A stretch of DNA of 64,000 bases from Candidatus Bathyarchaeota archaeon (lineage in GTDB: Archaea > Thermoproteota > Bathyarchaeia > Bathyarchaeales > Bathycorpusculaceae): contig CAWGYA010000008.1 of assembly GCA_963826715.1 (NCBI GenBank), positions 1,088,001-1,152,000 on the forward strand, in the 5' to 3' direction. A model generated the notes under the pieces. That model worked only from the letters and a program-made list of their open reading frames with translations, was not told the origin of the DNA and did no database searches. Of this stretch, positions 7,919-34,483 are shown one piece after another. The position numbers and the translations under genes were made by a program. Position 1 is the first letter of the stretch, and each line of letters opens with the position of its first letter.

Positions 7919-8575
7919 CTAAGTTGCGTATTTTGTTAGGTCTGTGATTCCTGCCTCCCTAAAAGCCTTTTTGCGGTTCATGCAGGATTCGCATTTGCTA
8001 CAGTGCATTTCACCATCCAGATAGCATGACCAAGTCAACTCAAAAGGTACACCAAGCTTAGCGCCCTCGCTGAATAGTTCAGATTTATTGCTACCGCTAA
8101 ACGGTGCTTTGATAGTGATTTCTTTGCATGTGCCAAGTCGTGCGGCTTTTTCGAAGGCTTCGTAGAATTCGCGTCGGCAATCTGGGTAGAAGGGTTCATC
8201 GCTGCCTTGTGCTCCATAGAAGATTTTCTCTGCACCAATTGAAACAGCATAAGCCACTGCGGCAGAAAGGAATATGGCGTTGCGGAAGGGTACGATTATG
8301 GGGTCGCTGAACTCTGTGGTAAGAGGAATTTCACGGTTGACGAGGCTGGTGGAGCCACTAAAGATTTCTTTAAGCGCGGAGAGATCGATGATTTTGCTGA
8401 TTACACCAAGGGTTTCTGCGATTTTTTGGGCACAACCTGTTTCTTTGTGAGCTATTTGCCCGTAGTTGAATGTTATAGGGTAAATTTGGTAGCCCTGCTG
8501 CTTTGCCCAGTACGCTACTGTGGCAGAGTCTGGACCACCACTTAGTACAACAACACATTTCTTCGGTTCCATCAT
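7919..8575 (-). CDS. queC: 7-cyano-7-deazaguanine (preQ0) synthase
   Basis: SGGPDS, FNYGQ, VPFRN, YPDCR, TWSCY and HC..CESC..R. Confidence 0.95.
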   Translation of the reverse strand: MMEPKKCVVVLSGGPDSATVAYWAKQQGYQIYPITFNYGQIAHKETGCAQKIAETLGVISKIIDLSALKEIFSGSTSLVNREIPLTTEFSDPIIVPFRNAIFLSAAVAYAVSIGAEKIFYGAQGSDEPFYPDCRREFYEAFEKAARLGTCKEITIKAPFSGSNKSELFSEGAKLGVPFELTWSCYLDGEMHCSKCESCMNRKKAFREAGITDLTKYAT

Positions 8576-8591: not shown

Positions 8592-9092
8592 TTATCTTCC
8601 TATCCATTTTTGGATGCCTATCCTCTTGAGTATCTTAAACAGTGGCCAACCTATGAGTACGCTTGCTATGATGTTCCCGAGGGCTACATAAACCATTGTT
8701 GCAAGAAGTGGTAACCCTATTACATAAGAGAGCATCCACCCAACAGTTACACCTAACACTACTGAATAGGCGATGCAAGTTCCAATTACCGTGAAGTCAT
8801 TGTTGGTTTTTTTGTAAACAAAGTAGACTACAAACGCCATTACAAAGGATGGTATCGTGTTTAGTAGGTCGATTGGGCCAAGGGGCGAAAAAAGGTTGGC
8901 GACGATAACGCCCAGGGTGTGACCAAGAACTCCAGCTATACCCAACAGAGGGACTGCTGCAAGCAATGAATCTGCAATTCTGACTTGAAGGGGTCCATAA
9001 GATATTCCTGGAAGGAAAATTACTAGTGCTGCATAAAGCGCAGCATATATCGAGATTAAAGCTAAATCTTTAGTGCGTATTTTCAAATGCAT
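8592..9092 (-). CDS. queT: QueT-family transporter (ECF S component)
   Basis: IYAALY, ISYGPLQVRIAD, G..IVANLFSPLG..D motifs, multiple TM helices, directly upstream of queC. ATG at 9092 follows GGGAG. Confidence 0.85.
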   Translation of the reverse strand: MHLKIRTKDLALISIYAALYAALVIFLPGISYGPLQVRIADSLLAAVPLLGIAGVLGHTLGVIVANLFSPLGPIDLLNTIPSFVMAFVVYFVYKKTNNDFTVIGTCIAYSVVLGVTVGWMLSYVIGLPLLATMVYVALGNIIASVLIGWPLFKILKRIGIQKWIGR

Positions 9093-9160
9093 TTTCTCCC
9101 TATTCCCGGGTTTTATTTTTTGTTGGCGGAACGGGTAGGAGAACCACTCACCCGCCAATC
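9093..9160 (-). promoter_or_regulatory. Putative riboswitch-like 5' UTR (pseudoknot sequestering the RBS) of queT-queC
   Basis: Stem TTGGCGG/CCGCCAA. Loop contains GGTTCTCCTACCCG, complementary to CGGG(AA)TAGG(G)AGAA before the ATG, with an A-rich linker. TATA-like TTTTTAGG ~25 nt upstream. Confidence 0.5.
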
Positions 9161-9332
9161 TGCACCATAAAGTTCCATACATACCTAAAAACATTTGTCC
9201 AACGAAACCATGCCTACCTGGTGTCTCTGTGGTTTCGGCGAAATCTTTAATTAATTCCTTAGAAAGATTACATGTTGCATCTTCCTAGTGGATGGCATTC
9301 CGCACAAACGGAGTTTTAGGGAGCATAAAACT

Positions 9333-30561: not shown

Positions 30562-30635
30562 AGCCTCGAGCGGGCCTTGCTCCCGCGGCCTGCTGCTTAC
30601 AAGGCAGCCGCTCTACTGGGCTGAGCTATCGAGGC
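30562..30635 (-). tRNA. tRNA-Thr(TGT), CCA not encoded
   Basis: Reverse complement GCCTCGA-TA-GCTC AGCCCAGTA GAGC-G-GCTGC CTTGTAA GCAGC-AGGCC-GCGGG AGCAAGG CCCGC-TCGAGGC-T. Confidence 0.88.

Positions 30636-31273: not shown

Positions 31274-34483
<3,210 letters not shown>

Follow-up and report, generated by a model that had tools for sequence, protein, structure and literature searches.

The 5' leader of the queT-queC mRNA in a 64,000-nucleotide stretch of Candidatus Bathyarchaeota archaeon DNA (assembly GCA_963826715.1, contig CAWGYA010000008.1, positions 1,088,001 to 1,152,000 of the forward strand; the whole stretch is called the window below) is probably a cis-acting translational OFF riboswitch of an undescribed class whose ligand is a 7-deazaguanine, most likely preQ0; we infer both the ligand and the direction of the response. 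The leader is about 70 nt long and can fold into a pseudoknot that takes up the Shine-Dalgarno (SD) sequence of queT. An initial annotation, made from the letters of the window, had proposed a preQ0/preQ1 riboswitch acting in this way, and the TATA box, 7-bp stem, loop strand, A-rich linker, SD complement and ATG that it listed are all present in the sequence where it had placed them.

Architecture of the queT-queC leader

The leader and the two genes that follow it are laid out in the window as follows.

9191-9184, minus strand: TATA-like box TTTTTAGG of the queT-queC promoter, read from the sequence
9159..9164, minus strand: predicted transcription start region, directly 5' of stem P1, placed by the TATA spacing
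9158-9152, minus strand: 5' strand of P1, UUGGCGG, with seven Watson-Crick pairs to 9129-9123
9151-9144, minus strand: conserved G-rich joining strand GUGAGUGG, which may compete for the anti-SD strand or contribute to the ligand pocket
9143-9132, minus strand: anti-SD strand UUCUCCUACCCG, the 5' strand of the pseudoknot in the 3' half of the loop, complementary to 9108-9094
9131-9130, minus strand: UU junction between the pseudoknot and the 3' strand of P1, the second U of which can close P1 as a G-U pair
9129-9123, minus strand: 3' strand of P1, CCGCCAA, pairing with 9158-9152
9122-9109, minus strand: A-rich linker, ending 3' in AAAAC and one unpaired C
9108-9094, minus strand: 3' strand of the pseudoknot, CGGG(AA)UA(G)GGAGAA, with the SD sequence GGGAG inside it at 9100-9096
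8592..9092, minus strand: queT, S component of the energy-coupling factor type and predicted 7-deazaguanine importer (Pfam QueT, E 1.1e-24)
7919..8575, minus strand: queC, 7-cyano-7-deazaguanine synthase, 16 nt after queT (Pfam QueC, E 1.5e-63)

QueC also matched the NCBIfam model TIGR00364 with 199 bits against a cut-off of 150.3. Stem P1 may be extended by the G-U pair between 9151 and 9130. In single-sequence folding, the 53-nt hairpin domain had a free energy of -15.6 kcal/mol (z -2.44), which was equalled by 2 of 200 shuffled sequences, and the pseudoknot duplex of the window by itself was estimated at about -15.2 kcal/mol. The 96-nt leader was unremarkable against its shuffles (z -0.69, 48 of 200 as stable) because the folding program is unable to form a pseudoknot, and this value was not counted as evidence. 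The folding of one sequence proves little; it is conservation, as read from sequence comparison, that takes the element beyond chance.

The position of the promoter is constant among relatives. In 94 of 123 unique copies of the element, the best TATA-like 8-mer begins 32-39 nt upstream of the GCGGGU core of the leader, and several of the other 29 copies visibly have a TATA-like box at the same distance. Archaeal promoters have a usual, established distance between TATA box and transcription start. With this distance and the fixed spacing, the transcript is predicted to start at the foot of P1, which bears out the promoter role that the initial annotation had given to the TATA box. A scan for promoters and terminators of the bacterial type found nothing, a result that is irrelevant to an archaeon. 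The queT ATG lies at 9092-9090, 3 nt from the SD core, and is followed by an in-frame TTG at 9086-9084, for which the SD spacing is normal. This TTG is conserved and aligns with the TTGAAA start of same-genus relatives, and it may be the true start of queT rather than the ATG.

The frame of queT is open in the window from an in-frame ATG at 9194, giving an ORF of 200 aa, so the leader might in principle code for an N-terminal extension of QueT. That reading has next to no credibility and is, on the comparative evidence, already contradicted. The open frames upstream of queT vary from 165 to 253 aa within the genus, the leader indels (ranges of 2-10 nt and 3-14 nt) come in steps other than whole codons, and conservation has no codon periodicity. 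Moreover, this start codon overlaps with the TATA box; it is specific to the window among the leaders compared, same-genus ones such as L002, L004 and L006 having no ATG there. The leader is thus very probably not translated from this upstream start, in line with the initial annotation.

Conservation, distribution and covariation

The leader was present before all 24 same-genus QueT orthologues analysed (63-79% protein identity). A covariance model of 25 same-genus leaders, with P1 as its sole structure, gave a single strong hit when run on the genome of the window (86.8 bits, E 5e-25); the runner-up there reached 13.7 bits (E 0.63). Within the order, the model matched 123 of 151 genomes (E <= 0.1), with 88 of the 105 high-quality genomes and 55 of the 63 genera represented. 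Matches at E <= 0.01 were obtained in 89 of 151 genomes of the class and in 32 of 151 genomes of the phylum, where families of other classes contributed 9 of 15 (f44), 3 of 3 (f56) and 2 of 2 genomes (f60). Genomes are partly shared between the draws for order, class and phylum, and relatives among them do not count as independent.

A pattern scan over one genome per prokaryote species yielded at least 118 stretches, 80 loci of which were listed. The covariance model confirmed 41 of these 80 loci, all 41 in records with archaeal titles: among the matches listed, 35 were assigned to Bathyarchaeia or Bathyarchaeota, 3 to Nitrososphaerota or Nitrososphaeria, and 1 each to Methanomethylicota, Promethearchaeota and an 'archaeon'. 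The best-scoring named copies among them are titled Candidatus Bathyarchaeota (L184, 88.3 bits; L179, 80.2 bits; L229, 79.5 bits). The Promethearchaeota-titled copy (L157, 33.5 bits) stands at the edge of a 5-kb contig, where mis-binning is possible and the downstream gene is unreadable. The other 39 listed loci were G+C-rich chance matches in bacteria and were rejected by the covariance model; a Mycolicibacterium record (L177) gave a partial match of 17.5 bits. On the whole, the leader RNA is real, ancient and widespread in archaea.

Some genomes carry more than one copy. Two to four copies of the motif were found per genome in G096, G135, G168, G111 and G278, and in G096 (L058/L067) and G135 (L057/L063) each of the two copies examined precedes its own queT paralogue.

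Base pairing was counted in a 91-row model alignment with 90 distinct rows. Two rows with the P1 variant GACGG/CCGUC (L073 and L092) are inside these pair counts and outside the copy counts and mean energies, which refer to 123 of the 125 unique copies. Stem P1 was 95.9% paired across the 90 distinct sequences, with two-sided changes (G-C to C-G, A-U and others) at five of its seven pairs. The 12 pairs of the pseudoknot were 87-98% paired, and six of them had two-sided changes (columns 26-91, 27-90, 35-86, 38-84, 39-80 and 40-75). For all 19 pairs of P1 and the pseudoknot, all five measures exceeded those of all 500 shuffles and all slid controls. Compensatory series could be followed directly, as with UUCUCC/GGAGAA versus GUCUCC/GGAGGC versus GCUUCC/GGAGGC, or in L007 and L041, which have UGCCCG/CGGGAGCA (UGCCCG...CA) where others have UACCCG...UA. 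The CCG of the anti-SD strand was found in 122 of the 123 copies, and the lone CAG copy (L110, CCAG) is compensated by CUGG in place of CCGG. Cognate pseudoknot duplexes had a mean energy of -17.5 kcal/mol versus -15.3 kcal/mol for non-cognate ones, and none of 2000 permutations reached the cognate mean. The stem and the SD-hiding pseudoknot of the initial annotation, which had asked for covariation among related queT leaders, are thus conserved and covarying in the leaders of relatives.

The unpaired positions are also strikingly constant. The G after the 5' strand of P1 is invariant in 123/123 copies, with UGAG next in 99 of them and UAGG next in 15; UU precedes the 3' strand of P1 in 122 copies and AU in one; and AAA-N-C stands directly before CCGG in all 123. 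Between these fixed points the mid-loop measures 2 to 10 nt and the first part of the linker 3 to 14 nt; this variable linker segment is 54% A and 29% U. Near-invariant unpaired bases of this sort are usual in a binding pocket and unlike a plain hairpin. They also argue against a constitutive SD mask, an RNA thermometer or an mRNA-stability element working without a ligand, since the sequences of thermometers and simple masks are free to drift. Sequestering the SD with a complementary upstream strand can be enough to tune translation, and rough energies (-16.4 kcal/mol for the hairpin domain versus -7.5 for P1 plus -17.5 for the pseudoknot, with the pseudoknot penalty ignored and the values indicative only) appear compatible with, though no proof of, two states of similar stability once that penalty is allowed for; both points would suit a ligand-free device. 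However, the element is tied to one pathway exclusively in hundreds of genomes, and we consider a ligand-free element very unlikely.

Downstream genes and the 7-deazaguanine pathway

The first ORF after the element encoded QueT in 107 of 108 cases and QueC in the remaining one. In distant lineages, 9 of 10 first ORFs were QueT and one was a 234-aa membrane protein without a known family. Among the 41 named records, 33/33 scanned ORFs were QueT, two further genes encoded radical S-adenosylmethionine (SAM) proteins and one a 277-aa membrane protein; 5 of the 41 were without a usable ORF (L229 and L186, and the contig ends L174, L157 and L211). These three gene sets may overlap in genomes. A same-strand queC gene followed in 55 of 126 copies.

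In two loci, L182:1802-2503 (-) and L193:1504-2223 (-), the motif stands directly before a QueE-like radical-SAM gene. The top five NCBIfam matches of both proteins were all QueE models, full-length and with E-values of 1e-16 to 1e-31, below the curated cut-offs. These QueE-like genes behind the motif would widen the regulon to de novo synthesis. In two other loci, L124:1573-2274 (+) and L220:5727-6557 (-), the motif precedes a membrane protein instead of queT. The two membrane proteins are homologous (32% identity, E 4e-29), have 4-6 predicted hydrophobic segments and share the motif IGGPGFITL. They fell into no Pfam or NCBIfam family and were not detectably QueT (hhalign probability 0.9%), and they are a candidate for a new 7-deazaguanine transporter. 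Judged by family assignment, every assignable gene behind the element belongs to 7-deazaguanine transport or synthesis, the two homologous membrane proteins being the exceptions. The tie to 7-deazaguanine genes put forward in the initial annotation for queT and queC therefore holds across the archaeal phylum and takes in queE-like genes as well.

The conserved structure and the gene association would fit a protein-bound leader equally well, that is, an RNA operator whose SD-hiding fold is stabilised by a trans-acting protein, for example an archaeosine-pathway enzyme or a repressor dedicated to this role. At the locus in the window, however, no candidate regulator gene was found, the element and queT-queC being flanked by genes for a proteasome subunit and a THUMP protein. 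Furthermore, the element is built like known small-molecule aptamers, its G+C stem being short, its linker A-rich and the bases at the junction invariant, and this build is constant across the phylum. On balance, we regard a protein operator as unlikely.

The genome of the window, which is 96% complete, contains genes for tRNA-guanine transglycosylase (TGT), QueC and QueT, whereas QueD (PF01242) and QueF were not found in it, and the QueE models gave just weak matches to radical-SAM proteins, all below the cut-offs. Across the order, QueD was found in just 4 of 101 genomes. QueC makes preQ0 from 7-carboxy-7-deazaguanine (CDG), and archaea insert preQ0 at position 15 of tRNA (PMC5699537). Since TGT is present and QueD was not found, queT-queC has the look of a module for salvaging a 7-deazaguanine precursor, and the gene content suggests dependence on an imported precursor of this type. 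The retention of QueC hints that the imported compound may be a QueC substrate, CDG or 7-amido-7-deazaguanine (ADG).

A second, smaller leader motif was observed in relatives of the window's archaeon before a paralogous QueT that is about 32-38% identical to that of the window (L029:1440-1500, L030, L143, L144, L145 and L147). It consists of a 5-bp stem GGUAG/CUACC, a 14-nt loop UUU...AAC and an A-rich tail followed by CCGG. With UU after the 5' strand of its P1, AC before the 3' strand and the A-rich tail, this motif resembles the bacterial preQ1-I riboswitch much more closely than the main element does; no Rfam model matched it. Of 301 genomes of the order, 9 carry the smaller motif, among them 7 of the 55 from the window's genus, and the controls gave 0 hits. 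Its carriers G150, G104 and G136 are without the main motif, and G030 has both.

Proposed mechanism and relation to known riboswitches

In the mechanism that we favour, the leader would form an H-type pseudoknot in which a G+C-rich P1 is joined by pairing of the anti-SD strand of the loop with the downstream SD region, the A-rich linker running along P1. A 7-deazaguanine base would bind at the junction of P1 and the pseudoknot, the site of the invariant G, the UU and the unpaired C. Bound ligand would lock the pseudoknot and hide the SD, so that translation of QueT, and then of QueC, would stop. In the ligand-free state, the conserved G-rich strand next to P1 would take up the anti-SD strand and leave the SD free. 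The SD-hiding pseudoknot is taken as the ligand-bound OFF state because the conserved, covarying parts form it and by analogy with the bacterial preQ1 classes. The most likely ligand is preQ0, since QueC makes it and since it is the free base that these organisms use and that the archaeosine TGT takes as its substrate. CDG, ADG, the archaeosine base and preQ1 are other possible ligands.

A riboswitch with another logic or ligand was also considered, namely an ON switch induced by an imported substrate such as CDG, or a sensor of the archaeosine base or preQ1. Such a device would suit the presence of QueC where QueD was not found, and the weak QueE matches, which suggest import of a QueC substrate, and two competing folds fit either direction of switching. 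However, the most conserved and covarying parts of the leader jointly form the SD-hiding fold, and in the known preQ1 classes the conserved fold is the ligand-bound one, according to the parts of the family review covered here (PMC11625349). In addition, the location of the element directly before queE-like genes and queC fits end-product feedback better than substrate induction. We therefore think it improbable that the switch follows this other scheme.

Several observations weigh against an OFF switch for preQ0 in its present form. The alternative inner hairpin, by which the initial annotation had the ribosome-binding site released, is available in relatives, the G-rich and anti-SD strands having two possible pairings that are 90-98% paired; yet the changes within them are almost only one-sided G-U exchanges, with no compensatory ones, and RNAalifold predicted P1 alone from the 91-row alignment, with an invariant G-U closing pair. 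Hence the competing hairpin is plausible but not demonstrated. The outermost pair of the pseudoknot was unpaired in 26 of 81 cells, and the divergent members L027, L119 and L120 are without the CCGG part of the pseudoknot. The alignment used for pair counts was itself fitted to a P1-built model, and the non-independence of related sequences makes the shuffle and permutation counts look more significant than they are. Should queT start at the ATG at 9092, the SD spacing is just the 3 nt noted above, and it is the TTG at 9086 that restores normal spacing. Finally, because no known preQ1 model matches the element, it is gene association alone that points to the ligand.

Rfam 15 was scanned at the gathering score for the window and permissively (E <= 10) in scans of 86 nt, 401 nt and 47.5 kb, with 20 diverse loci covered. 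None of these scans returned preQ1-I (types I-III, presumably RF00522), preQ1-II (the COG4708/queT motif of Streptococcaceae and Lactobacillales, which we take to be RF01054), preQ1-III or any other plausible family at E-values up to 10. Matches to RsaOG, mir-204 and similar models, with E-values of 1-8, were at chance level and were discarded. Owing to this lack of matches to the bacterial preQ1 models, the element is not placed in any preQ1 class, although it would work like preQ1-II and type III of preQ1-I; the functional half of the preQ1 comparison drawn in the initial annotation stands, and class membership does not. The GGUUC that had served there as a cue for preQ1-I belongs to the one part of the loop that varies, and relatives have not kept it, so this likeness is coincidental.

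Comparison with the individual classes draws on the parts covered of the 2024 review of the preQ1 family, which describes three classes and has 0 occurrences of the word archaea (PMC11625349). The preQ1-II riboswitch, larger than preQ1-I and limited to Bacillota, controls translation from the queT leader by burying the SD in a pseudoknot helix (PMC11625349). The archaeal element likewise occupies a queT 5' leader with the SD inside a pseudoknot helix; its conserved bases differ, and it is confined to archaea among the matches listed from the genomes searched, in contrast to the Bacillota class. As for the fold, preQ1-II is an HLout pseudoknot with four pairing regions P1-P4 and shares ten pocket nucleotides with class III; the archaeal leader has a possible inner hairpin, not supported by compensatory changes, and its pocket may or may not be like that of preQ1-II. 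With preQ1-I, the element shares the H-type pseudoknot, the short G+C stem, downstream pairing by a loop strand, the A-rich 3' linker and control of que genes, and in type III of that class the SD is occluded in the pseudoknot (PMC11625349). The specificity cytosine of preQ1-I is part of an AC or UC directly before the 3' strand of P1 (PMC11625349); the archaeal element has UU at this place (122 of 123 copies), and its loop, of approximately 20-30 nt, is much longer. The third class, preQ1-III (RF02680), is similar in its queT association and in the use of SD/anti-SD pairing as expression platform, but its SD helix is far from the pocket (PMC11625349), whereas the SD strand of the archaeal element is the pseudoknot strand itself, next to P1.

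Whereas riboswitches abound in bacteria, archaeal riboswitch classes are, according to the parts covered of a further paper, few and sparingly used, comprising mostly thiamine pyrophosphate (TPP) and fluoride riboswitches with single examples of others, all of them bacterial classes with archaeal occurrences too (PMC5473149). The TPP- and fluoride-type classes are likewise cis-acting metabolite sensors in leaders; the element matches none of them and is archaea-only in the genomes searched. As in riboswitches generally, the element is a conserved, covarying 5' leader at the predicted transcript start and is consistently associated with the genes of one metabolite. In the portions of the literature covered, which included parts of PMC5473149, PMC11625349, PMC5069720, PMC8281238, bioRxiv 10.1101/2025.04.10.648167, PMC5372724 and PMC5699537 and had survey supplements outside its scope, we found no report of an archaeal queT or queC leader RNA. 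An archaeal 'Motif_9307' in the part covered of one of these sources (bioRxiv 10.1101/2025.04.10.648167) is a nosD leader and is unrelated.

Given that few archaeal riboswitch classes are known, a class that is common among archaea and linked to the archaeosine precursor would be noteworthy. If the reading is correct, the leader would be a fourth RNA fold for 7-deazaguanine sensing and would open a direct way into gene control by RNA and into SD-dependent initiation in archaea that are mostly uncultured. It would also serve as a sequence marker for 7-deazaguanine salvage in an order with so few QueD-bearing genomes, and would flag unannotated pathway genes, i.e., the membrane protein of L124 and L220. 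A wider proposal, which we see as evenly poised between right and wrong, is that the element is the first archaea-specific riboswitch class, a preQ0 sensor that extends from Bathyarchaeia-type to Nitrososphaeria- and Methanomethylicota-labelled genomes and governs a queT-queC salvage module in archaea mostly without QueD. Under this proposal, the element would mark archaeosine-precursor auxotrophy and exchange as widespread and would point, via its regulon, to a new family of 7-deazaguanine membrane transporters, while a preQ1-I-like mini class would replace it in some genomes.

Apart from the leader, no small-subunit rRNA adjoining the large-subunit gene was reported in the Rfam scan of the window. 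The window also holds an archaeal large-subunit rRNA gene at 31367-34400 and tRNA genes at 1894-1967 and 30562-30635.
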